A stretch of DNA of 64,000 nucleotides from Mycobacteriales bacterium. Its GTDB lineage: Bacteria; Actinomycetota; Actinomycetes; BP-191. The translations under genes and the position numbers were made by a program. The DNA lies in NCBI GenBank assembly GCA_036382875.1, contig DASVPJ010000042.1:51859-115858 (forward strand), in the 5' to 3' direction. A model generated the notes under the pieces. It did no database searches. It was not told the origin of the DNA and was given only the letters and a program-made list of their open reading frames with translations. Position 1 is the first letter of the stretch. Each line of letters opens with the position of its first letter. Positions 341-62,374 of this stretch are shown piece after piece.

Positions 341-520
341 GAAGGTCCTCCGGGGACGGGGGCGGCGGGGCGCGAGCGCGCGGGACGGCGTTCGCGTGGT
401 GGGAAGCGTAGTGCGTGGGGGTCGTGGGGCGCCGGGGCGGCGGCGGGTGCCGGGGGTGCGGGTGGGGCGGCGGTGCGGCAGGCGCGGGTCGTGAGGCGGC
501 GGGGGGCGCGGGCGGCGGCG

Positions 521-583
521 CGGGGGCGGGCGGCGCGGGCGGCGCGGGCGGCGCGGGCGGCGCGGGCGGCGACGAGGGTGAGG
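521..583. repeat. GC-rich 9-nt minisatellite (ggcgcgggc, about 7 tandem units) in the intergenic region
   Basis: Direct tandem repetition is visible at 521-583, between the methyltransferase start and the HEPN gene stop. Confidence 0.5.
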
Positions 584-10780: not shown

Positions 10781-11392
10781 ATGGACGACCTCGACCGGTG
10801 GTGCGCGCTGCACGCGTTCGAACGCCACCGCGCCGGCCCGATCCTCCGCACGTACGTGCGCGCCACGTACGCGCTCGCCCGCCGGTTGCCGCCGTGGCCC
10901 GCGCTGGTCACCGCGGCGGGCGTCGCGCTCGCCGCTGCCTCCGTCTCCCTCTACGGCTCCGCGCCGGCGGCGGTCGCGATCCTGCTGTCCGGCGCCGCCG
11001 ACGGGCTCGACGGCGCGGTCGCGGCGGTGCGCGGCCGGGCGACGACGTTCGGCGCCGTCCTCGACTCCACCGCCGACCGGGTCGCCGACCTCGCGCTGCT
11101 GCTCGGCCCGGCGCTGCGCGTGCGGGACGCCCGGGCGGCGCTCGTCGCGGCCGGAGCGGGGACGTTCCTGCTGGAGTACGTCCGCGCCCGCTGCCAGGCG
11201 GTCGGCCTCACCACCCGCCAGCCGGTCACGCCCGCCGAGCGGCCGGTCCGCGTCGTCGCGGCGGCGGCGCTCGCGCTCAGCCCGGGGGCCTGGACGTGGG
11301 GCGGCTGGGCGCTCGCGGCGCTCACCGTCCTCAGCGCCGGGTGGCTCCTGACCGACGCCCGAGCCAGGTCCACCACAGCAGCGTCTGGGTGA
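10781..11392 (+). CDS. CDP-alcohol phosphatidyltransferase family membrane protein
   Basis: Motif DGLDGAVAAVRGRATTFGAVLDSTADRVAD fits D-x2-DG-x2-A(R)-x8-G-x3-D-x3-D. Multi-TM. Confidence 0.55.
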   Translation: MDDLDRWCALHAFERHRAGPILRTYVRATYALARRLPPWPALVTAAGVALAAASVSLYGSAPAAVAILLSGAADGLDGAVAAVRGRATTFGAVLDSTADRVADLALLLGPALRVRDARAALVAAGAGTFLLEYVRARCQAVGLTTRQPVTPAERPVRVVAAAALALSPGAWTWGGWALAALTVLSAGWLLTDARARSTTAASG

Positions 11393-14561: not shown

Positions 14562-15089
14562 ATGTACTCCGGCTCGCTCGTCCGGCTGCGCGCGCCGGAG
14601 CCGCGCGACGTGCCGGACCTGCACCGCTGGTCGAACGACCCGGCCGTCGCCTCGCTCGCCGGCGTCCGCTACCCGGTGCCGCTCGGGGCGGAGAGCGACT
14701 GGGTCGAGCGGGCGGGCGTGGGCTCGTACGCCAACTGCCAGTTCGCCGTGGAGACCCTCGACGGCGGCGTGCTGCTCGGCACCTGCTGGCTGTCGGAGAC
14801 GGCGTTGCCGGAGAACCGCTGCGCGCAGCTCGGCATCTTCCTCGGCGACCCCGCGCGGCACGGCCGCGGCTACGGCACCGACACGGTGCGGACGCTGTGC
14901 CGCTTCGGGTTCGACGAGATGAACCTGCACCGCATCGAGCTGCTGGTGTTCGCCCACCACGCCGCCGCGCGGCGGGTGTACGAGAAGGCCGGCTTCGTCG
15001 AGGAGGCGTACTCGCGCGAGGCGCACTGGGGCGACGGCGCGTGGTGGGACGACGTGCTGATGTCCCTGCTCGAGGGCGAGCTGCGGTGA
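14562..15089 (+). CDS. GNAT family N-acetyltransferase (RimJ/RimL-like), paralog 1 of 4
   Basis: Acetyl-CoA-binding motif RHGRGYGT. The N-terminal motif RLRAPEPRDVPDLHRWSNDP is conserved among the four paralogs. Confidence 0.75.
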   Translation: MYSGSLVRLRAPEPRDVPDLHRWSNDPAVASLAGVRYPVPLGAESDWVERAGVGSYANCQFAVETLDGGVLLGTCWLSETALPENRCAQLGIFLGDPARHGRGYGTDTVRTLCRFGFDEMNLHRIELLVFAHHAAARRVYEKAGFVEEAYSREAHWGDGAWWDDVLMSLLEGELR

Positions 15090-15604
15090 ACGGCGCCCTC
15101 GTCCGGCTGCGCCCGATGGAGCCGGCCGACGCCGAGGCGCAGCACCGCTGGCGCAACGACCCGGACGTGACGGTGTGGACCGGCTGGCGCTACCCGATCG
15201 CGCGGGCGGCGATCGCGCAGCGGATCGTCGGGCCGATGTCGTTCGCGAACCCGCGGTTCTCCGTCGAGCGCCTCGACACCGGCGAGCTGGTCGGCTACAC
15301 CGCGCTGCGCGACGTCACGCCCGAGTCGCGCAACGGCGAGCTCGACCTGGTGATCGGCGAGCGTTCGGCGTGGGGGCAGGGCTTCGGCACGGACACGGCG
15401 CGGACGATCTGCGCGTACGCGTTCGAGCGGATCGGGCTGCACCGCGTGCAGCTCTGGGTCGTCGCGTCGCACGCGCCGGCGATCCGGGCGTACGAGAAGG
15501 CCGGCTTCGTGCCCGAGGGCGTGGCGCGGCAGCGGTTCTACAAGCGCGGCGCCTGGCACGACGCGCTGCTGATGGCCCGGCTGGCGCCGGGACCGCGCCC
15601 GTGA
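15086..15604 (+). CDS. GNAT family N-acetyltransferase, paralog 2 of 4
   Basis: GTGA overlap with the previous gene. RLRPMEPADAEAQHRWRNDP...WGQGFGT. Confidence 0.75.
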   Translation: MNGALVRLRPMEPADAEAQHRWRNDPDVTVWTGWRYPIARAAIAQRIVGPMSFANPRFSVERLDTGELVGYTALRDVTPESRNGELDLVIGERSAWGQGFGTDTARTICAYAFERIGLHRVQLWVVASHAPAIRAYEKAGFVPEGVARQRFYKRGAWHDALLMARLAPGPRP

Positions 15605-16110
15605 TCGCCGGGTCGCTCGTCGCGCTGCGCGAGCGCCGCCCGGCGGACGTGCCGGTCGCGCGCGCGTGGTTCGCCGACCCCGAGGCGATGCGCTGGACGC
15701 TGCGGACCTACCCCGGCGGCGAGTACGACGTGCCGCGCGAGCCGCTCGGCTGGGGCACCGTCCCGCTGACCGTCGTGGACCTCGCGTCGGGCACGCCGAT
15801 CGGGCACTGCGGGCTCGGCGAGATGTCCGCCGAGCACCGCCGGGCGCTGGCCTGGCTCACCATCGGCGAGGCGGCGTACCGCGGCCGCGGCTACGGCACC
15901 GACGCGATGCGCACCCTGTGCCGGTGGGCGTTCGACAGCGTGAACCTCGCCAAGGTGGAGCTCGAGGTGATCGCCGACAACGCCGCCGCCGTCGCGGTCT
16001 ACGAGCGCGTCGGCTTCGTCCGCGAGGTCGTGCGGCGGCGGGCGCTGTGGGTGGACGGCGCGTGGCGCGACGAGTACCTCATGGGCCTGTTCCCCGAGGA
16101 GCTGCGGTGA
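15601..16110 (+). CDS. GNAT family N-acetyltransferase, paralog 3 of 4
   Basis: GTGA overlap. ALRERRPADVPVARAWFADP...RGRGYGT. Confidence 0.75.
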   Translation: MIAGSLVALRERRPADVPVARAWFADPEAMRWTLRTYPGGEYDVPREPLGWGTVPLTVVDLASGTPIGHCGLGEMSAEHRRALAWLTIGEAAYRGRGYGTDAMRTLCRWAFDSVNLAKVELEVIADNAAAVAVYERVGFVREVVRRRALWVDGAWRDEYLMGLFPEELR

Positions 16111-16613
16111 CCGTCGTGCTGCGGGCGCGCGAGCCCGCCGACGCGGCGCTGCTGGCGTCGTGGTTCGGCGACGCGGAGACGATGCGCTGGTGGGACCGCG
16201 TGTACCCGCCGCTGCCCGCCGAGGTCATGGCGGAGCGCATCGCGGCGGAGCCGCCGGTGGGGTTCGGCTCGCTGTCGTTCATGGTCGACGCGGGCCGCGA
16301 GACGGTCGGCTGGGGCGGGCTGCACCACCCGTCGCCGGAGCACCGGCACTGCGGGCTCGGCGTGCTGGTCGGGCCGGGGCACCGCGGCCGCGGCCACGGC
16401 GAGGCGGCGACGCGGGCGCTGTGCCGGTTCGCGTTCGACCGGATGAACCTGGTCCGGGTGTCGCTCACGGTCTTCCCCGGCAACGACGTCGCGCGGCGGG
16501 TCTACGAACGCGTCGGCTTCGTCGAGGAGGGCGTGCAGCGGCGGGCGTTCTGGAAGCGCGGCGAGTGGCACGACCTCGTGCACATGGCGGCGTTCCCGGA
16601 CACGCTGCGCTAG
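16107..16613 (+). CDS. GNAT family N-acetyltransferase, paralog 4 of 4
   Basis: GTGA overlap. [22 protein letters not shown]...RGRGHGE. Confidence 0.75.
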
Positions 16614-36323: not shown

Positions 36324-36351
36324 CCGGCGGGGCCGGGTCGCGCCCCAACTG

Positions 36352-36397
36352 TGAAGATCGCCACGCGGGGCGGCGCGCTCCGGGCTTCACAGTTGGG
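36352..36397. repeat. REP-like palindromic element, family B copy 1 (ccccaactgtgaag ... cttcacagttgggg)
   Basis: 14-bp perfect inverted repeat with an 18-nt spacer in a convergent intergenic region. A near-identical copy is at 48044-48100. Confidence 0.6.
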
Positions 36398-36415
36398 GGG
36401 AAGCCTCGCCGCGGC

Positions 36416-40910: not shown

Positions 40911-42157
40911 GCCAGCAGCACAGCGAGACGGTGGAGATCAGCGGTCACCTGATGGACTCCGGCGTGCTCGCCCGCGTGCTCGACGACGTGCTCGACTACG
41001 GCGGCGACTACGTCATCGACCGGCTCGACCTCGGGCGTACGCACGACGACGAGTCGCACGCGCGGATCCGCGTCGGCGCCGACTCGGAGGACGTCCTCCA
41101 GCGCATCCTCATGCGCATCCAGATCCACGGCGTCAACCAGGTCGACCCGGGCGAGGCGACGCTGCGCCCGGCGGACCGCGACGGCGTGTTCCCCGAGGAC
41201 TTCTACTCGACCACCAACCTGGAGACGCTCGTCCGCGTCGACGGGAAGTGGCTGCGGGTCGAGCAGCCGGAGATGGACTGCGGCCTCGTCGTCGCCGACG
41301 GGCGGGTGCGCACCGTTCCGGTGTCCGACGTGAAGGCCGGCGACCTCGTCGTGTGCGGGGCGAACGGCGTCCGCGTCGTGCTCCCGCACCAGGAGCACTC
41401 GGCGAAGACGTCGGGGCACTTCGAGTTCATGGCGTCGACCGTGTCGAGCGAGAAGCCGCAGGCCTTGCTGGTCCGCCAGATCGCCGCGCACCTGCGCGAG
41501 GTCAAGGCCGCGGGCAAGCGCATCCTCTGGGTCGCCGGGCCGGCCGTCGTGCACACCGGCGCGTCGCCCGCCATGGTGGCGCTGGTCAACGCCGGCTACG
41601 TCGACGTGCTGTTCGCCGGCAACGCGCTGGCGACGCACGACATCGAGTCCGCGCTGTTCGGCACGTCGCTCGGCGTCGACCTCACGATCGGCTCCGGCGT
41701 CGAGCACGGCCACGAGCACCACATCCGCGCGATCAACACGATCCGCCGCGCCGGGTCGATCGCCGACGCGGTGAAGCAGGGCGTGCTCAACGGCGGCGTC
41801 ATGCACGCGCTGGTGGAGGCCGGGAAGCCGTTCGTGCTCGTCGGGTCGGTGCGCGACGACGGGCCGTTGCCCGACGTGTACACCGACGTCATCGAGGGGC
41901 AGCGGGCGATGCGCGCCGAGCTCCACGACGTCGGCTACGCGATCATGGTCGCGACGATGCTGCACTCGATCGCGACCGGGAACATCCTTCCCGCCTCGAT
42001 CCCGCTGGTGTCGGTCGACATCAACCCCGCGACGGTGACGAAGCTCGCCGACCGCGGGTCCGCGCAGGCGGTCGGCATCGTGACCGACATCGGGCTGTTC
42101 CTGGAGCAGCTCGCCGGGGAGCTCTGCCCCGGCTACCGCCGCCCCGGCCCCGAGTAG
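40906..42157 (+). CDS. TIGR00300-family protein (archaeal-type ornithine cyclodeaminase-like; LOR/SDH N-terminal-domain homolog)
   Basis: N-terminus VEISGHLMDSGVLARVLDDVLDYGGDYVIDRLDLG matches the conserved start of TIGR00300 proteins (recalled from memory). Confidence 0.55.
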
Positions 42158-42193
42158 CCCGACGCCCGCCCCACCCGCGCCCCCGCCGTGGTG

Positions 42194-42245
42194 AGCGTTT
42201 CCTGCAGCGAACGTTCTCCCGTGACGCTTCGCTGCAGGAAACGCT
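42194..42245. repeat. REP-like palindromic element, family A copy 1 (agcgtttcctgcagcgaa - 16 nt - ttcgctgcaggaaacgct)
   Basis: Perfect 18-bp inverted repeat in a convergent intergenic region. A second copy is at 61088-61138. Confidence 0.6.
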
Positions 42246-42288
42246 CGCGGCACGGGCGGCCGGGGGGCGGCGGGCGGGGCGGCGGGGG

Positions 42289-45200
42289 CTAGGCGGGCAG
42301 CATCGAACGCAGCCTCACGTCGAGGCCCGGGGGCGCGTCGAGGTCGGCCAGCAACGCCGCCACCGGCTCCTCCACCCGCGCCGCGGCCGGCTCCTCCCCC
42401 GCGCGGCGCAGCGACTCGGCCTGCCACACCAGCGCCCGCGCCAGCCAGACGGTGGCGCCGAGCTCCGCCCAGGCCGTCGCCGCGCGCTCGAACGCCGCCG
42501 CCGCGTCGGCCGGCGACGACGCGCGCAGCAGGCGCAGGCCGTCGTTCTCGGCGGCCGTCGCGTGCGTCTCGGCCAGGTCGCCCGACGTGGGCGCCAGCGT
42601 CGCGGAGCCGGCGACGCCACCGAGCAGCGAGAGCTGCTCCAGGCAGGCCGCGGCCAGCGCGCCGTACCGCGCGGTGTCGTGCCGGCGCGCGGCGTCCATC
42701 GCCTCGGCGACGAGCGACTCGGCGCGGTCCGAGCCGTCGGCGACCGCGCAGCGCGCCTGCACGATCCGCATGCCGGTAGCCGAGAGCGACCAGCCGCTCG
42801 ACTCGGCGCGGTCGACGGCGCGGTCGGCGAGCGCCGCGCCCTCGGCCCAGCGGCCCGAGTCCATGAGCAGCTCGGCCTCGTAGAAGAGCACGGTGAGCTC
42901 GGCGGTGCGCTCCCCGATCCGGGCCAGCGCGGCGCGGCCGTCGCCGAGCTGCTGGCGGGCCAGCGCGGCCCGCCGCGAACGCAGCGCGGCGCGCGAGGCG
43001 TTGACCAGCGCGACCGCGCGCAGCCGCGCCGAGCCGAGCGAGTCGGCCCGCGCGAGCAGCTCGCCGAGCACCCGGTCGCTCTCGTCCAGCCGGCCCAGCG
43101 CGGACAGGCACTCCTGCTGGATCAGCAGCCCGTCGATCTCCCGCCACCGCGCGCCCGACTCGGTGGCGTCGGCCTGCGCCAGCACGGCCGCCTCCAACGC
43201 GGCGCCGAGGTCGCCGCGGTACTGCAGGTGGAACGCCAGCGCGCAGCGCACCTCCGCCCGCCCCCGCAGCTCCGCCTCGCTGCGCGCGGAGGCCTCGGCG
43301 AGGCCGTACCAGCGGCGGAACTCCGCGCCACCGGCCGGCGACAGCAGGTACGCGAGGAACCGCGCGACCGCCGCCTGCCCCGCCTCGTCGCCGGCCTGCC
43401 GGTACAGGTCGTACGCCTCCCGCAGCAGCCTGGTCATCTGCGGCAGGTCGTCGAAGCGGAGGTTCTCCGCCGCCTGGAACGTCGCCGCCGCCAGCAGCCC
43501 CACGTCGCCCGCCCGCTGGAGCAGCGCCACCGCCTCCGCGTGCAGCTCGCGCGCCCGGTCCAGCCGCGACACGTGCGACAGCGACACCGAGTGCGCGAGC
43601 AGCGCGCGGGCGCGCAGCACGCCGTCGCCGACCGCGTCGGCCAGCGCCTCGGCGGCCTGCAGGTCCTCGATGGCGTCGCCGAAGCGGAGCAGCTCGTTCA
43701 ACGCCGTCGCCCGCTCCACGAGCAGCGTCGCGTAGACGTCGTCGGAGATGCACTGCCGCGACGACTGCGCGACGTCCACCGCCTGCGACAGCGCCGCCTC
43801 GGCCGCGCGCGCCTGGTGCCGGTAGAGCGAGCGCCCCCAGGCGAGCAGGTGCCGCACCGCGAGCCGGGCGAGGTCGCAGGACGGCTGCACGCCGGCCGTG
43901 TCCGAGCGGGCCAGCGAGTACGCCTGGTGGTAGTGGTACGCGAGCAGCGCGACCGGCGGGCTCGCCCCGGCCGACAGCCACTCGGCGACCACCGTGTGCA
44001 GCGCGGACCGGTCGCGGCGGGACAGCGACTCGTACGCCACGTCGCGGATGAGCACGTGCTTGAAGACGTACTCGTCGCCGGACACCCGGCGCAGCAGGCC
44101 GCGGTCGACCAGCGCGTCGAGCGCGTCGCCGAGGTGCGGCTCGTCCGACATCGCCGCGAGCACCCCGGCGGCGAACGTGTCGCCGGCCACGGAGGCGCGT
44201 TGCAGCAGGCGCTTCTCGGCCGGCGAGAGGCTGTCGAGGCGCGCGGCGATGAACATGCGCATGGAGTTCGGGACGCGGCGGACCTGCGTCGCGTCGGCGT
44301 CGACCCCGCCGACGCCGCGCGAGATGCCGCCGGTCTCCAGCAGCATCCGGGTGCACTCCTCGAGGAACAGCGGGTTGCCGCCGGCCCGGTTCAGCAACGC
44401 CGCGGCGAGCCAGTCCGGCGGCTCCACGCCGAGCAGGTCGGCGAGCAGCGTCCGCATGTCCTCGTCCGGCAGCGCGCCAAGCTCGCGGGACGGCAGCGGC
44501 CGCGGCGGCTCGAGCTCGGGCCGGGCCAGCGCGAGGACGAGCACGGGCGCGTCGAGCGGCGCGGCGTCGAGCGCGCAGACCGCGTCGACCAGCTCCTGGT
44601 CGGCCCACTGCAGGTCGTCCACCAGCAGGATCACCGGCTGCGCCGCGGCGGCCGCGACGAGCACCGCGCGCAGCGCCGCGACCTCCGCCTCGGCGGAACG
44701 TTCGCCGGCCGAGCCGAGCAGGTACGCCACCCGGGCGGCGAGCGCCGGCGAGTCGCCGAACACCCGCCGGACCGCCGCCGTGACCTCGGGCTCCGGCGCG
44801 TCCGGCGGCACGCCGAGGTGCGTCGCGACCGCGTCCACGACCGCCTGCAACGGCCGCCGCCGCCCGTACGGCGTGCACCGCCCGCGCAGCGCGGTGACGC
44901 CCGCCCGCCGGGACAGGAACTCCGCGGCGAGCCGGCTCTTCCCCTGCCCCGCCTCGCCGCTGACGACGAGCACCCGCGAACGCCGCGCGGCCACCATGTC
45001 GTCCAGTGCCGCGTGCAGGTGACCGAGCGCGTCGCGGCGGCCGACGAACACCCCGGTCGGCGGCCGCGCGACGGCGCGGGCGTCCAGGCCGAGCAGCTCG
45101 TGCACCACGACCTTGTCCGCGAGCCCGCGCAGCCGGACCGCCCGGCCGGGCCCGAACCGCAGCCCCGGCCCGGCCAGCTCCACCGTCCGCTCGCCGACGA

Positions 45201-45735
45201 GCGTCTGCCCGGGCTCGGCCTCGGAGCACAGCCGCGAGGCGGTGTTCACGGTCTCGCCCGCGACCGAGAACCCGCCCACCTCGCGCGACGCGGCGACGAG
45301 CACCTCGCCGGTGTTCACGCCGACGTGCAGCGCGGGGACGCGGAGGCGGTCGTTCGACCGGTTCACCGCGGCGACCTCGGCGTGCAGCGCCACGGCCGCG
45401 TGCAGCGCGCGCGCCGCGTCGTCCTCGTGGCCGACCGGCGCGCCGAACACCGCCATGAACCCGTCGCCGAGCATCTGCGGGACCGACCCGCCGAACGACT
45501 CCACGACCCGGCGCAGCGCGGTCATCGCCGGCCGCAGGAAGTCGTGCACGTCCTCCGGGTCGAGCCGGCTCACCAGCTCGGCGTAGCCGGTCATGTCCGT
45601 GAACAGCACCGTCACGAGCTTGCGCTCCGGCGGCGCCGTCGGCTCGCCGCAGTCGCCGCACACCGCCGCGCCGCCGGGCACGCCCGCCCCGCAGCTCCGG
45701 CACCGCGCCGTCTCGTCCGCCCCCCGCACGTCCAT
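42289..45735 (-). CDS. Adenylate/guanylate cyclase (CHD) - AAA/STAND ATPase - TPR multidomain protein with an N-terminal zinc ribbon
   Basis: CRSCGAGV...CGDCG, then a class III cyclase domain (LVTVLFTDMTGYAEL...GVNTGEV), a Walker A motif GEAGQGKS and long TPR-like helical repeats. The architecture is like mycobacterial Rv0386/Rv1358 but lacks a C-terminal LuxR HTH. Confidence 0.8.
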   Translation of the reverse strand: MDVRGADETARCRSCGAGVPGGAAVCGDCGEPTAPPERKLVTVLFTDMTGYAELVSRLDPEDVHDFLRPAMTALRRVVESFGGSVPQMLGDGFMAVFGAPVGHEDDAARALHAAVALHAEVAAVNRSNDRLRVPALHVGVNTGEVLVAASREVGGFSVAGETVNTASRLCSEAEPGQTLVGERTVELAGPGLRFGPGRAVRLRGLADKVVVHELLGLDARAVARPPTGVFVGRRDALGHLHAALDDMVAARRSRVLVVSGEAGQGKSRLAAEFLSRRAGVTALRGRCTPYGRRRPLQAVVDAVATHLGVPPDAPEPEVTAAVRRVFGDSPALAARVAYLLGSAGERSAEAEVAALRAVLVAAAAAQPVILLVDDLQWADQELVDAVCALDAAPLDAPVLVLALARPELEPPRPLPSRELGALPDEDMRTLLADLLGVEPPDWLAAALLNRAGGNPLFLEECTRMLLETGGISRGVGGVDADATQVRRVPNSMRMFIAARLDSLSPAEKRLLQRASVAGDTFAAGVLAAMSDEPHLGDALDALVDRGLLRRVSGDEYVFKHVLIRDVAYESLSRRDRSALHTVVAEWLSAGASPPVALLAYHYHQAYSLARSDTAGVQPSCDLARLAVRHLLAWGRSLYRHQARAAEAALSQAVDVAQSSRQCISDDVYATLLVERATALNELLRFGDAIEDLQAAEALADAVGDGVLRARALLAHSVSLSHVSRLDRARELHAEAVALLQRAGDVGLLAAATFQAAENLRFDDLPQMTRLLREAYDLYRQAGDEAGQAAVARFLAYLLSPAGGAEFRRWYGLAEASARSEAELRGRAEVRCALAFHLQYRGDLGAALEAAVLAQADATESGARWREIDGLLIQQECLSALGRLDESDRVLGELLARADSLGSARLRAVALVNASRAALRSRRAALARQQLGDGRAALARIGERTAELTVLFYEAELLMDSGRWAEGAALADRAVDRAESSGWSLSATGMRIVQARCAVADGSDRAESLVAEAMDAARRHDTARYGALAAACLEQLSLLGGVAGSATLAPTSGDLAETHATAAENDGLRLLRASSPADAAAAFERAATAWAELGATVWLARALVWQAESLRRAGEEPAAARVEEPVAALLADLDAPPGLDVRLRSMLPA

Positions 45736-48043: not shown

Positions 48044-48100
48044 CCCCAACTGTGAAGATCACCACGCGGGAACGGCGCGGCCCGGGCTTCACGGTTGGGG
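48044..48100. repeat. REP-like palindromic element, family B copy 2
   Basis: ccccaactgtgaagatcaccacgcggg...ggcttcacggttgggg. Its right arm encodes the last codons and stop of the upstream LLM oxidoreductase gene. Confidence 0.6.
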
Positions 48101-59584: not shown

Positions 59585-60090
59585 CCGTCTGGCTCACCGG
59601 CCTCCCCTGCGCCGGCAAGACCACGATCGCGCGCGCCGTCGCCGAGCGGCTCGACGGCCCCGTCGAGATCCTCGACGGCGACGAGGTGCGCGCGTACCTG
59701 TCGAACGACCTCGGCTTCTCGAAGGCCGACCGCGACACCCAGGTGCTGCGCGTCGGCTGGGTCGCCGCGACGCTCGCCAAGCACGGCGTCACCGTTCTCG
59801 TCTCGCTCGTGTCGCCGTACGCCGCCGCCCGCGACAAGGTGCGCGCGCTGCACGGTGAGCTCGGCGCCGAGTTCCGCGAGGTGCACGTCGCGACGCCGGT
59901 CGAGGTGACCCGCGAGCGCGACGTGAAGGGCATGTACGCCAAGGCGCTGGCCGGCGAGATCACCGGCTTCACCGGCGTCGACGACCCGTACGAGCCGCCG
60001 GCCGCCCCCGACCTCGTGATCCGCACCGAGACCGAGTCGGTCGCCGACTCCGCCGCCCGAGTGCTCGCCCTCCTGGAGGCCCGCGCATGA
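59572..60090 (+). CDS. cysC: Adenylyl-sulfate kinase
   Basis: P-loop GLPCAGKTT. APS kinase length and motifs. Confidence 0.85.
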   Translation: MRGLTVWLTGLPCAGKTTIARAVAERLDGPVEILDGDEVRAYLSNDLGFSKADRDTQVLRVGWVAATLAKHGVTVLVSLVSPYAAARDKVRALHGELGAEFREVHVATPVEVTRERDVKGMYAKALAGEITGFTGVDDPYEPPAAPDLVIRTETESVADSAARVLALLEARA

Positions 60091-61016
60091 CGCTCCTCGA
60101 CCCCGGCACCCGGCACACGCCGTACGCCCTCTCGCACCTCGACGTCCTCGAGTCCGAGGCCATCCACGTCATGCGCGAGGTCGCCGCGGAGCTGGAGCGC
60201 CCGGCGCTGCTGTTCTCCGGCGGCAAGGACTCGATCGTCATGCTGCGGATCGCCGAGAAGGCGTTCTGGCCGGCGCCGATCCCGTTCCCGCTCATGCACG
60301 TGGACACCGGCCACAACTTCGACGAGGTCATCGACTACCGCGACCGCCGGGTCGCCGAGCTCGGCGCGCGGCTCGTGGTCGCGAGCGTGCAGGAGTCGAT
60401 CGACACCGGCCGCGTCCGCGAGCGGCCCGGCCAGTCGCGCAACCCGCTGCAGACCGTGACGCTGCTCGACGCGATCGCCGCGAACAGGTTCTGCGCCGTC
60501 TTCGGCGGCGCCCGCCGCGACGAGGAGAAGGCGCGGGCCAAGGAGCGGGTGTTCTCGTTCCGCGACGAGTTCGGCCAGTGGGACCCGAAGAACCAGCGCC
60601 CCGAGCTGTGGAGCCTCTACAACGGCCGGCACAACCCCGGCGAGCACATCCGCGTCTTCCCGCTGTCCAACTGGACCGAGCTCGACATCTGGCAGTACAT
60701 CGAGCGCGAGGGGCTCGAGGTCCCGTCGATCTACTTCGCGCACGAGCGCGCGGTGTTCGAGCGCGACGGGATGCTGCTCGCCGTCTCGCCGTACGTGACG
60801 CTCCGGCCGGGCGAGACGCCGTCGGTGCGCACGGTGCGCTACCGGACCGTCGGTGACGCCTCCTGTACGGGAGCGGTCGAGTCGACCGCCGCCACCGTCC
60901 AGGACGTCATCGCCGAGATCGCGGCGACCCGCATCACCGAACGCGGCGCCACCCGCGCCGACGACAAGGTGAGCGAGGCCGCGATGGAGGACCGGAAGCG
61001 AGAGGGCTACTTCTAA
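60087..61016 (+). CDS. cysD: Sulfate adenylyltransferase subunit 2
   Basis: PAPS-reductase-like fold (LFSGGKDS). 309 aa. ATGA overlap with cysC. Confidence 0.9.
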   Translation: MTLLDPGTRHTPYALSHLDVLESEAIHVMREVAAELERPALLFSGGKDSIVMLRIAEKAFWPAPIPFPLMHVDTGHNFDEVIDYRDRRVAELGARLVVASVQESIDTGRVRERPGQSRNPLQTVTLLDAIAANRFCAVFGGARRDEEKARAKERVFSFRDEFGQWDPKNQRPELWSLYNGRHNPGEHIRVFPLSNWTELDIWQYIEREGLEVPSIYFAHERAVFERDGMLLAVSPYVTLRPGETPSVRTVRYRTVGDASCTGAVESTAATVQDVIAEIAATRITERGATRADDKVSEAAMEDRKREGYF

Positions 61017-61087
61017 GTGACCACCACCACCGCGCGCCCCCCGGCCCCCGCAGCCGCCGCCCCCCGCCCAGCCCCCCGGCCCGTGCG

Positions 61088-61138
61088 GCGTTTCCTGCAG
61101 GGAACGTTCGCCGGCGCGACTTCGCTGCAGGAAACGCT
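61088..61138. repeat. REP-like palindromic element, family A copy 2 (between cysD and cysN)
   Basis: gcgtttcctgcagggaa-16 nt-ttcgctgcaggaaacgc, with one mismatch relative to a perfect 17-bp inverted repeat. Confidence 0.6.
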
Positions 61139-61156
61139 CACCGCCGGGGGCGCCGC

Positions 61157-62374
61157 GTGACCACGGAACTCCTCCGGCTGGCGACCGCGGGGTCGGTCGA
61201 CGACGGCAAGAGCACGCTCATCGGGCGGCTGCTCTGGGACTCGAAGAGCGTCTTCGAGGACCAGGCCGCGGCCGTCGAGGACGCGTCCGCGCGGCGCGGC
61301 GAGGCGACCAACCTCGCGCTGCTCACCGACGGCCTCCGCGCCGAGCGCGAGCAGGGCATCACGATCGACGTCGCGTACCGGTACTTCGCCACGCCGAAGC
61401 GGAAGTTCATCGTGGCCGACACCCCCGGCCACATGCAGTACACCCGCAACATGGTCACCGGAGCCTCGACTGCCGACCTCGCGGTGATCCTGGTGGACGC
61501 GCGGAAGGGCCTCGTCGAGCAGTCGTTCCGGCACGCGTTCCTGTCCACCCTGCTGCGTGTCCCGCACCTCGTCCTCGCGGTCAACAAGATGGACCTGGTC
61601 GGCTGGGACGAGGGCGTGTTCCGGGCCATCGCGGAGGCGTTCCCGTTCCCCGCGACGGCCATCCCGATCTCCGCGCTGCACGGCGACAACGTCGTCACGC
61701 GGTCGGCGAACGCGCCCTGGTACGCCGGCCCCTCGCTGCTGGAGCACCTGGAGTCGGTGGACGTCGCGACGAGCCACCACCTGGGCGACGCGCGGTTCCC
61801 CGTCCAGTACGTCGTCCGCGACCACCGCAGCGACTACCGCGGCTACGCCGGCCAGGTCGCGAGCGGCGTGCTGCACGCCGGCGACGAGGTCGAGATCCTG
61901 CCGAGCGGCGTGCGGACGACGATCGCGTCGATCGACACGTACGACGGCCCGGTGGACGAGGCGTTCGCGCCGATGTCGGTGACGATCCGCCTCGCCGACG
62001 ACGTCGACGTGTCGCGCGGCGACATGATCGTCGGCCTCGGCGGCCGCCCGAACGTCACGCAGGACGTCGAGGCGACGGTCTGCTGGATGACCGACGAGCC
62101 GCTGCGGGCGGGCAGCCGCTACCTGGTCAAGCACACGACCCGCACCGCGAAGGCGGTCGTGAAGACCGCCGACGAGCGGCTGGACGTGACGACGTTGACG
62201 CCGGTGCCGGCGGACGGCCTCGGCCTCAACGACATCGGCCGCGTCACGCTGCGGACCGCGCAGCCGCTGTTCGCCGACGACTACGCGGAGAACCGCGCGA
62301 CCGGGTCGTTCATCCTCGTGGACGAGCTGACCGGCGCGACCGCCGGCGCCGGGCTGATCGGGGCGCGCGCGTGA
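61157..62374 (+). CDS. cysN: Sulfate adenylyltransferase subunit 1 (GTPase)
   Basis: GTP-binding motifs GSVDDGKST, DTPGH and NKMD. 405 aa. Not fused to cysC. Confidence 0.9.
   Translation: MTTELLRLATAGSVDDGKSTLIGRLLWDSKSVFEDQAAAVEDASARRGEATNLALLTDGLRAEREQGITIDVAYRYFATPKRKFIVADTPGHMQYTRNMVTGASTADLAVILVDARKGLVEQSFRHAFLSTLLRVPHLVLAVNKMDLVGWDEGVFRAIAEAFPFPATAIPISALHGDNVVTRSANAPWYAGPSLLEHLESVDVATSHHLGDARFPVQYVVRDHRSDYRGYAGQVASGVLHAGDEVEILPSGVRTTIASIDTYDGPVDEAFAPMSVTIRLADDVDVSRGDMIVGLGGRPNVTQDVEATVCWMTDEPLRAGSRYLVKHTTRTAKAVVKTADERLDVTTLTPVPADGLGLNDIGRVTLRTAQPLFADDYAENRATGSFILVDELTGATAGAGLIGARA

Follow-up and report, generated by a model that had tools for sequence, protein, structure and literature searches.

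Family A, a short palindromic repeat that occurs twice in the stretch of DNA analysed here (64,000 nt, hereafter the window), is probably a small non-autonomous mobile element of the REPIN/MITE type. Its host would be, judging by the database names of the MAGs, a clade of uncultured soil Frankiaceae/Mycobacteriales. The evidence comprises a dispersed repeat family, a covarying hairpin, intergenic positions, sites that are filled in one genome and empty in another, an 8-bp direct repeat at one copy, and an open reading frame (ORF) that bridges the interrupted gene pair. From this evidence, we infer mobility in the strict sense, an enzyme that recognises the element, and any effect of the element in RNA. 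To our knowledge, palindromic repeats of this kind have rarely been described in actinobacteria outside Mycobacterium. Family A adds one lineage-specific palindromic repeat to a long list; what makes it notable is mainly that one operon junction has been colonised convergently while translational coupling was kept. Moreover, the filled and empty sites in near relatives provide a natural comparison set for how hairpin elements enter operons.

Anatomy and distribution of family A

The core hairpin of copy 1 was located at 42193..42246, with no strand assigned, and has the sequence GAGCGTTTCCTGCAGCGAA-CGTTCTCCCGTGACGC-TTCGCTGCAGGAAACGCTC, in which a 19-bp perfect stem (GAGCGTTTCCTGCAGCGAA / TTCGCTGCAGGAAACGCTC) is closed by a 16-nt loop; it scored 71 bits with the covariance model of the family. 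Copy 2 was located at 61086..61139, likewise without strand, and has the sequence GCGTTTCCTGCAGGGAA-CGTTCGCCGGCGCGAC-TTCGCTGCAGGAAACGC(TC). It repeats the arms of copy 1 with one internal G/G mismatch, carries a 16-nt loop and scored 63.9 bits. A first-pass annotation of this DNA had described two near-identical hairpins of about 52 nt with perfect or near-perfect stems and with 16-nt loops that both open with CGTTC. This description holds: the hairpin placed at 42194-42245 is copy 1 minus one pair, the stem is perfect in copy 1 and has a single mismatch in copy 2, and the CGTTC opening was read directly in both copies. The gene context, i.e., a convergent region after a TIGR00300 gene for one copy and the gap between cysD and cysN for the other, was confirmed by gene tables.

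When the cores were folded as RNA, copy 1 gave −44.7 kcal/mol (z = −8.5) and copy 2 gave −35.4 kcal/mol (z = −5.2). The GC content of the cores was 61–67%, compared with 75.5% for the window. The two copies agree at just 10 of the 16 loop bases; thus, neither is a recent copy of the other. The window is identical to contig Ga0334905_000014 of JGI metagenome 3300034687 (L002). A second, independent assembly from another sample (ENA ERZ27253064, L003) was 99.7% identical and contained copy 2 unchanged. Accordingly, the hairpin of copy 2 is not an assembly artefact.

Outside the core, both copies are bordered by low-complexity DNA, C-rich to the left and G-rich to the right. The similarity between the flanks of copies 1 and 2 was not clearly above that of composition-matched shuffles (in the best comparison, 8 of 300 shuffles did as well), and the earlier statement that the flanks are unrelated is therefore essentially right. 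An attempt to describe the two copies as elements of 130–160 nt in opposite orientation was dropped for the same reason, as the flank homology was not significant against these shuffles. Since the GC-rich outer sequence differs between copies and its homology is not demonstrable, the true ends of the mobile unit are undefined.

With the covariance model, eight copies were found in five related genomes within approximately 351 kb, at 48–77 bits compared with at most 16 bits elsewhere. Six of them lie beyond the window, in four related genomes and at unrelated intergenic sites, as expected from the earlier proposal of a dispersed family and not of a local duplication. Three relatives (L005, L006, and L013) came from metagenome Ga0190268, where they lie on three large contigs of 71–74% GC. 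They were obtained by a pattern scan of metagenomes in which gaps of 14–40 were allowed between the arms; the scan returned 17 loci, of which 3 were true relatives. The remaining matches fell in coding DNA or were due to chance, or belonged to arrays of the 16-bp palindrome GTTTCCTGCAGGAAAC that precede a gene in other organisms. In L034, a tandem pair of diverged hairpins was exposed by a BLAST match in syntenic loci, and the covariance model found one more copy in L025, with GTCGAC replacing CTGCAG. All eight copies are intergenic and near gene ends, five of them within approximately 70 nt downstream of a stop codon. The 71 kb of the source genome that were read contained two copies, and this low density (two copies per 64–71 kb) counts against the mobile reading. 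Extrapolated from about one copy per 30–80 kb, a genome would contain tens to a few hundred copies; REPs typically exceed 100 copies within one genome.

A search with the two-arm pattern in 185,579 species genomes, a collection outside which the source species falls, found no related copy, and its sole match was an unrelated palindrome from Lachnospiraceae. Plasmids, phages, and viral contigs were also searched and contained no copy of family A. A 22-nt match in a Sinorhizobium plasmid, apparently coding, and another in a viral contig were attributed to chance, as neither was palindromic. The absence of copies from all these collections counts against mobility. A profile of the peptides encoded in the three frames of the element, compared with a collection of 5.8 billion proteins, gave nothing at E ≤ 10, with low power because the motifs were 20 residues long.

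The common unit has a length of approximately 54–60 nt and consists of inverted arms of 19–24 nt around a 16-nt spacer that is the same length in eight of eight copies. The base of the stem, GCGTTT on the 5' side and AAACGC on the 3' side, was invariant in all eight aligned copies. Each arm, CGTTTCCTGCAGCGAACG, is itself an imperfect palindrome, in which 14 of 18 positions match its own reverse complement, and is centred on the 6-bp palindrome CTGCAG, or GTCGAC in one variant. Thus, the unit looks like two inverted REP-like sequences with a spacer.

Filled and empty sites, and comparison with REPINs and MITEs

The genes on either side of copy 2 are cysD (sulfate adenylyltransferase subunit 2; 60087..61016, plus strand) and cysN (sulfate adenylyltransferase subunit 1, a GTPase; 61157..62374, plus strand), which are separated by 140 nt in the window. 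No start of cysN upstream of 61157 is possible, as this is the first start codon following an in-frame stop. Compared with the empty junctions of relatives, the window contains an insert of 132 nt (61025..61156, no strand assigned), in which a C-rich stretch of 61 nt precedes the core hairpin and a G-rich tail of 17 nt follows it. On either side of the insert stands the 8-bp direct repeat GTGACCAC, whose left copy (61017..61024, plus strand) matches the single ATGACCAC of the empty sites and whose right copy (61157..61164, plus strand) is the current cysN start codon with the five bases after it. The window junction therefore reads TAA-GTGACCAC, 132 nt, GTGACCAC-GGAACT, compared with TAG-AG-ATGACCACC in L024, TAA-CC-ATGACCACC in L032, and TAATG in L034, where the genes are spaced by 2 nt (L024 and L032) or overlap by 1 nt (L034). 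Since either copy of GTGACCAC can be aligned with the one ATGACCAC present in the empty sites, the repeat has the signature of a target duplication.

In the case of copy 1, the neighbours are a TIGR00300-family (LOR/SDH-like) gene on the plus strand (40913..42157, start approximate), whose stop is 36 nt upstream of the hairpin, and a convergent gene on the minus strand for an adenylate/guanylate-cyclase and AAA_16 regulator (42289..45735), whose stop is 43 nt from it. The segment 42138..42285 (no strand assigned), in which the core hairpin is bordered by a C-rich arm to its left and a G-rich arm to its right, is replaced by 15 nt in the closest relative, L026; the insert is thus approximately 148 nt compared with 15 nt. 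In L026, the stops of the two genes are 7 nt apart. The segment provides the TIGR00300 gene with new last codons and a new stop, changing PPR* to RRPGPE*. The region 42131-42291 folds into a hairpin of approximately 70 bp (−129.8 kcal/mol, z = −6.9). When the window was compared with L026, no target duplication was recognisable at copy 1, which counts against the mobile reading.

Synteny around both loci is kept in relatives with 86–94% identical proteins, and both window copies are insertions relative to close relatives. Among the options raised by the first-pass annotation, that of a non-autonomous mobile element is accordingly favoured, as both window sites are empty in close relatives.

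Family A resembles bacterial MITEs such as Correia/NEMIS, ERIC, and RUP in its length below 200 bp, its lack of transposase coding capacity, and its long stable stem-loop; the inserts of 132 and approximately 148 nt fall within the size of a MITE (under approximately 400 bp). It also shares with them the filled and empty sites, the direct repeat at one insertion, and a position inside operons with co-transcription (MITE features according to PMC3184786). However, the conservation of family A is central, in the hairpin, and not terminal. Its outer arms are GC-rich inverted repeats within a copy that vary from copy to copy and show no significant similarity between copies. Furthermore, no parent IS with matching ends is known, and the direct repeat was present at one copy only. 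If family A is a MITE, a parent IS would be expected whose terminal repeats contain GCGTTTCC...GGAAACGC.

Neisseria DUS and Haemophilus USS are conserved short sequences that occur as inverted pairs with variable loops 3' of genes, where they act as terminators. Family A is similar in that a conserved short sequence forms inverted pairs with varying loops downstream of genes, but it differs in its fixed spacer, in arms that are always together, and in insertion behaviour with empty sites.

In PMC3733652, a REP is described as a short (20–40 bp) imperfect palindrome, and most described REPs carry a GTAG or CGTC tag. The same paper and PMC3337134 place REPs in extragenic DNA, mostly 3' of ORFs, with convergent or co-directional neighbours. 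Family A corresponds to this description in its arms and in its location, all eight copies being extragenic, downstream of genes, and between convergent or co-directional genes. It also has the architecture of a REPIN, as two inverted imperfect palindromes (14/18 each), separated by a short spacer that always measures 16 nt, fold together into a single long hairpin. The invariant stem base suggests that the hairpin is recognised in a sequence-specific manner, and, as with the RAYT-mobilised REPs and REPINs of gamma-proteobacteria, lineage-specific families occur and several coexist in one genome. Even so, it is unlikely that family A is a true REPIN, in which two inverted REPs are moved by a single-copy RAYT (Y1/HUH) via a single-stranded hairpin intermediate. 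Neither end carries an unpaired GTAG or CGTC tag, and no conserved GTAG or CGTC was present next to the palindrome in the eight aligned copies. IS200/IS605-type Y1 transposition is not known to make a target duplication, but copy 2 has an 8-bp direct repeat on its two sides. None of the genome fragments that were read showed a RAYT gene. Moreover, the host is an actinobacterium, and the REP survey paper names no actinobacterial example (0 occurrences).

The preferred reading, a small mobile palindromic element, can be outlined as follows. A putative trans-acting enzyme would recognise the folded element via the invariant GCGTTT/AAACGC stem base and would insert copies into intergenic DNA. Copies would then persist only where they are harmless, either between convergent gene ends, as for copy 1, or at the rare operon junctions without gene overlap, as for copy 2. 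The Pfam tables of the retrieved loci, which amount to a minor fraction of each genome, listed no transposase domain. When complete genomes of the clade become available, the mobilising enzyme may be traced with the help of the covariance model and the invariant stem base.

Translation across the cysD–cysN junction and turnover of hairpin elements

The gap between cysD and cysN in the window is bridged by an ORF of 47 codons (61017..61160, plus strand). Its GTG directly follows the TAA of cysD (TAAGTG), and its TGA overlaps the GTG of cysN (GTGA). This GTG represents the left-hand member of the duplicated cysN start and thus takes over the ribosome-binding context that was originally present at the 3' end of cysD. 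Across the window and its relatives, four of four different inserts at this junction were translatable into cysN: two contain a mini-ORF ending on the cysN start and two are fused in frame. The probability that all of them are translatable by chance was approximately 0.03, which is a rough shuffle estimate and becomes less extreme if the two family-E inserts represent one event. Given the bridging ORF and the four translatable inserts, the sequence looks selected to keep translational coupling. The first-pass annotation had suggested that copy 2 may decouple cysN from cysHCD; the 47-codon ORF and the translatability of every insert found here are contrary to this suggestion. The junction is a small but clear example of how selection screens insertions and thereby maintains translational coupling. 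It also carries a warning for annotation, as such inserts can be fused onto CysN as N-terminal extensions: gene callers annotate the two in-frame inserts as extensions of 29 and 37 residues.

No bridging ORF was found for the family-A copies that lie between co-directional genes in L025 and L034. For family A, the bridging ORF therefore belongs to the cysD–cysN site and not to the element. In an unrelated family, X, a bridging ORF of 53 codons is conserved at three independent junctions. These features are close to those of MIRUs, which have a length of 40–160 nt, lie between genes of operons, contain a small ORF overlapping the stop and start of the neighbours, and have insertion sites that may be filled or empty and carry short direct repeats (PMC3184786). 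The host order is also Mycobacteriales, and copy 2, with its small ORF, fits this description, as does family X more consistently; at the co-directional L025 and L034 copies the ORF is absent. On the other hand, MIRUs are direct tandem repeats used in VNTR typing, whereas family A is a single inverted repeat with one tandem hairpin pair (L034); this comparison was made by description only.

In another explanation, family A is a functional RNA module kept by selection. It would act as a bidirectional, U-tract-independent terminator or 3'-end stabiliser and as an intercistronic regulator of cysN, and its likeness between loci would come from recombination or convergence and not from transposition. 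The core hairpins are very stable across the family (−35 to −53 kcal/mol), their pairing is preserved by compensatory changes, and five of the eight copies are within about 70 nt 3' of a stop codon. Furthermore, the same two sites hold other hairpin-forming inserts elsewhere, as if a hairpin were wanted there. However, several close relatives have no hairpin at either site, and function alone would not account for near-identical arms of 17–19 nt at loci that are unrelated and belong to different genomes. The products of cysD and cysN are the two subunits of one enzyme, and a strong terminator between these genes would be harmful; the bridging ORF suggests that ribosomes melt the hairpin. Neither the window nor 120 kb of related loci matched an Rfam family at the gathering score, and the E-value mode returned only sub-threshold matches to generic hairpins (miRNA precursor). 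No site resembling an intrinsic terminator was found on either strand at either locus, the sequence after the hairpins being G/C-rich. As the U-tract is absent on both strands, the hairpins are not canonical intrinsic terminators; a Rho-independent terminator of this form was rejected, and the terminator option of the earlier annotation is not borne out in its canonical form at either copy. Taken together, an RNA module in place of a mobile element seems improbable.

Under the mobile-element reading, an inserted copy would be transcribed within the mRNA. At copy 1, this would provide a very stable 3' hairpin to both convergent transcripts, which may protect the 3' end or cause pausing or termination independently of a U-tract. 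In the cysD–cysN gap, ribosomes may use the duplicated start and the open frame to cross, and thereby melt, the hairpin and to reinitiate at cysN, so that coupling would be kept.

Family A is not the only family at these sites. The cysD–cysN junction contains a 160-nt element of family X in L021/L022, which is also present at a further two to three sites in other genomes, and copies of family E in L025 and, in the opposite orientation, in L023. Thus, three unrelated element families occupy the junction in four lineages. Between the TIGR00300 and cyclase genes, family E was found in L028, which is from the same genome as L025, and family D in L029; the latter family is present also in L013. Hairpin family C is common to Ga0190268 and several relatives, and the window itself contains family B at 36343-36399 and 48044-48100. 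The presence of families B, C, D, E, and X at the same kinds of site, including both window sites, points to ongoing turnover. Small palindromic elements thus form a rapidly changing population in this clade. In the cys operon, gene tables showed inserts only at the two non-overlapping junctions, cysD–cysN and NMT1/ABC, which fits survival at permissive sites.

The variety of these inserts allows a broader explanation, to which we assign a low probability: families A, X, E, C, D, and B may together form an undescribed system of interchangeable hairpin elements. Their insertion would depend on an enzyme distinct from both RAYTs and classical DDE transposases, which may work through fold-back or hairpin priming, and they would repeatedly colonise the same stop/start junctions. 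Their mini-ORFs would keep coupling, and the elements would act as MIRU-like tunable intercistronic spacers that set the CysD:CysN ratio. The direct repeats at the ends of the inserts of the clade measure 8, 5–6, 4, and 3 nt, and such varying lengths, which are not expected of one classical transposase, count against the preferred mobile-element reading. In addition, the outer GC-rich arms are complementary within a copy and different between copies, in families X and E as in family A, which fold-back or hairpin-primed insertion would explain.

Compensatory change in the stem

The middle of the stem varies in step on its two sides, from TTTCC/GGAAA to TTTGC/GCAAA and TTTCA/TGAAA, and from CTGCAG to GTCGAC. 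In the eight copies, including one that was found with a structure-aware model, 11 of the 24 stem pairs were altered on both sides (22 cells). Paired cells amounted to 87%, compared with 34–45% when the partner was slid, and none of the covariation measures was reached in shuffles (0/500). Covariation among five copies was uninformative and became informative after the diverged L034 and L025 copies were added. The hairpin is thus maintained by compensatory change.

The same data bear on the possibility that a dimeric DNA-binding protein, nucleoid-associated or regulatory, uses the two arms as a pair of double-stranded binding sites and that the hairpin is a by-product. The two 18-bp near-palindromes would then lie 35 bp apart from centre to centre. 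Each arm is near-palindromic around a CTGCAG or GTCGAC hexamer, the spacing between the arms is strictly constant, and the arms are AT-richer than the genome, all of which favours this reading. However, covariation was observed between the arms and not within them, and the asymmetry of TTTC and GTTC within an arm was kept in all copies, which points to intrastrand pairing. The window copies are also away from promoters, one lying between convergent stops and the other inside an operon, and the site is missing in close relatives. Protein-binding sites are therefore a very unlikely explanation. Chance resemblance, or a piece of a larger segmental duplication, could be thought of because the window contains only two copies, each in GC-rich low-complexity DNA, but it is scarcely credible, as a 19-mer arm with at most three mismatches gave four matches in the window (both arms of both copies) compared with 0.02 in shuffles, the covariance model scored at every window position gave 48–71 bits for copies 1 and 2 compared with 14.5 for the next best, the flanking genes are unrelated, and further copies exist in four other genomes. 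A filter-free search with the covariance model found exactly two family-A copies in the window.

The loops are less conserved than the arms, with a mean identity of 0.52 compared with 0.84, and they differ among the five near-identical copies. An initial description of the arms as constrained and the loops as free was softened, as some loops are well conserved once orientation is considered. With orientation allowed for, the loops of L005 and L006 agree at 13 of 16 positions, and those of L025 and the second L034 copy (L034b) at 14 of 16. The conservation of these loop pairs points to common descent and not to independent invention.

Repeats at the family A sites in related genomes

Family A, the palindromic hairpin repeat, occupies the TIGR00300/cyclase spacer (copy 1, 42193-42246) and the cysD|cysN junction (copy 2, 61086-61139) of the window. 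Both sites were held by another repeat, family E, in one related genome, which was represented by the loci L025 (10928-11045) and L028 (11234-11330). Family E was also found in reverse orientation in the relative L023 (10928-11020). Its centre was a conserved 32-nt stretch, TCGCTAGGGCTCnTTCnTCGCTTnAGTCGCTC, and the GC-rich inverted arms on either side varied among the copies. In the annotations of L023 and L025, CysN carried family E as an N-terminal extension. At the TIGR00300/cyclase site, occupied by family A in the window, the relative L029 carried family D (11312-11380). Family D, which was also present in the Ga0190268 contig L013 (43-111), consisted of GTTACTGGTGAGTAGCGGC, a loop of approximately 31 nt, and GCCGCTACTCACCAGTAAC.

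The 3' end of the TIGR00300 gene

At window 42138-42157, the copy 1 insert had replaced the stop codon and the three codons before it in the TIGR00300 gene, and the C-terminal end, ELCPGYPPR* in relatives, was changed to ELCPGYRRPGPE* in the window. Downstream of this gene, a conserved intergenic motif, GCGCAACCGGG..GCGG..GCGAAAAGCGCA(A/C)AACGCACCCCGAAGG, was present in three relatives (L027 11231-11575; L028 11330-11394; L029 11234-11300), and it was missing from the window and from L026, the closest relative at this site. The motif gave no match in Rfam; it may encode a small RNA or serve as a terminator.

Additional repeat families

Family X, an element of approximately 160 nt, was located in the relatives L021 (10931-11090), L025 (13297-13458), L028 (7503-7665 and 1226-1309), L029 (7377-7539), and L027 (7365-7528). 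At three independent operon junctions, it contained a conserved 53-codon ORF, which started 2-3 nt past the upstream stop and ended on the downstream start codon. This bridging from the upstream stop to the downstream start codon was a feature like that of the mycobacterial interspersed repetitive unit (MIRU). The interior of family X was conserved, while its outer inverted repeats varied among copies.

Family C, a hairpin of approximately 60 nt with the arms CGTGATCTTGGCGACGTT...AACGTCGCCAAGATCACG, was common to the Ga0190268 organism (L005 6013-6072; L013 3275-3334) and several Frankiaceae relatives, and the window lacked it. The loci of relatives L025 (15088-15149), L027 (18373-18432), and L033 (18376-18435) each carried one hairpin, and two were present in L028 (5114-5174 and 17188-17228) and L029 (5121-5178 and 17204-17268).

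The window itself contained a second palindromic repeat, family B (36343-36399 and 48044-48100), with the layout CCCCAACTGTGAAG, a loop of approximately 28 nt, and CTTCACAGTTGGGG. The two copies showed 89% identity over a 57-nt alignment, the conservation including the loop, and the first copy was flanked by convergent ORF ends. A partial match was found in L026 (15863-15893).

Palindrome arrays and other repeats

The perfect 16-bp palindrome GTTTCCTGCAGGAAAC was unrelated to family A. Unrelated organisms with a GC content of 67-69% carried two to three copies of it directly upstream of a gene that began with MSRANRSFIDGQFDLF (L007 4399-4448; L015 2444-2493 with another site approximately 42 nt downstream; L019 4883-4943 with another site approximately 24 nt downstream), and these arrays look like operators or iterons.

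Four copies of a unit of approximately 510 nt, 60-77% identical to one another, were arranged in tandem at window 14570-16609. Their translated start, GSLVRLR.PEP.D...HRW.NDP, suggests GNAT-type acetyltransferase paralogues in tandem. G-rich arrays of degenerate short repeats with GGGCGGCGCGGG-like units were present at window 464-575 and 1100-1292, and similar G-rich or C-rich runs flanked both family A copies and the cyclase stop of L029.
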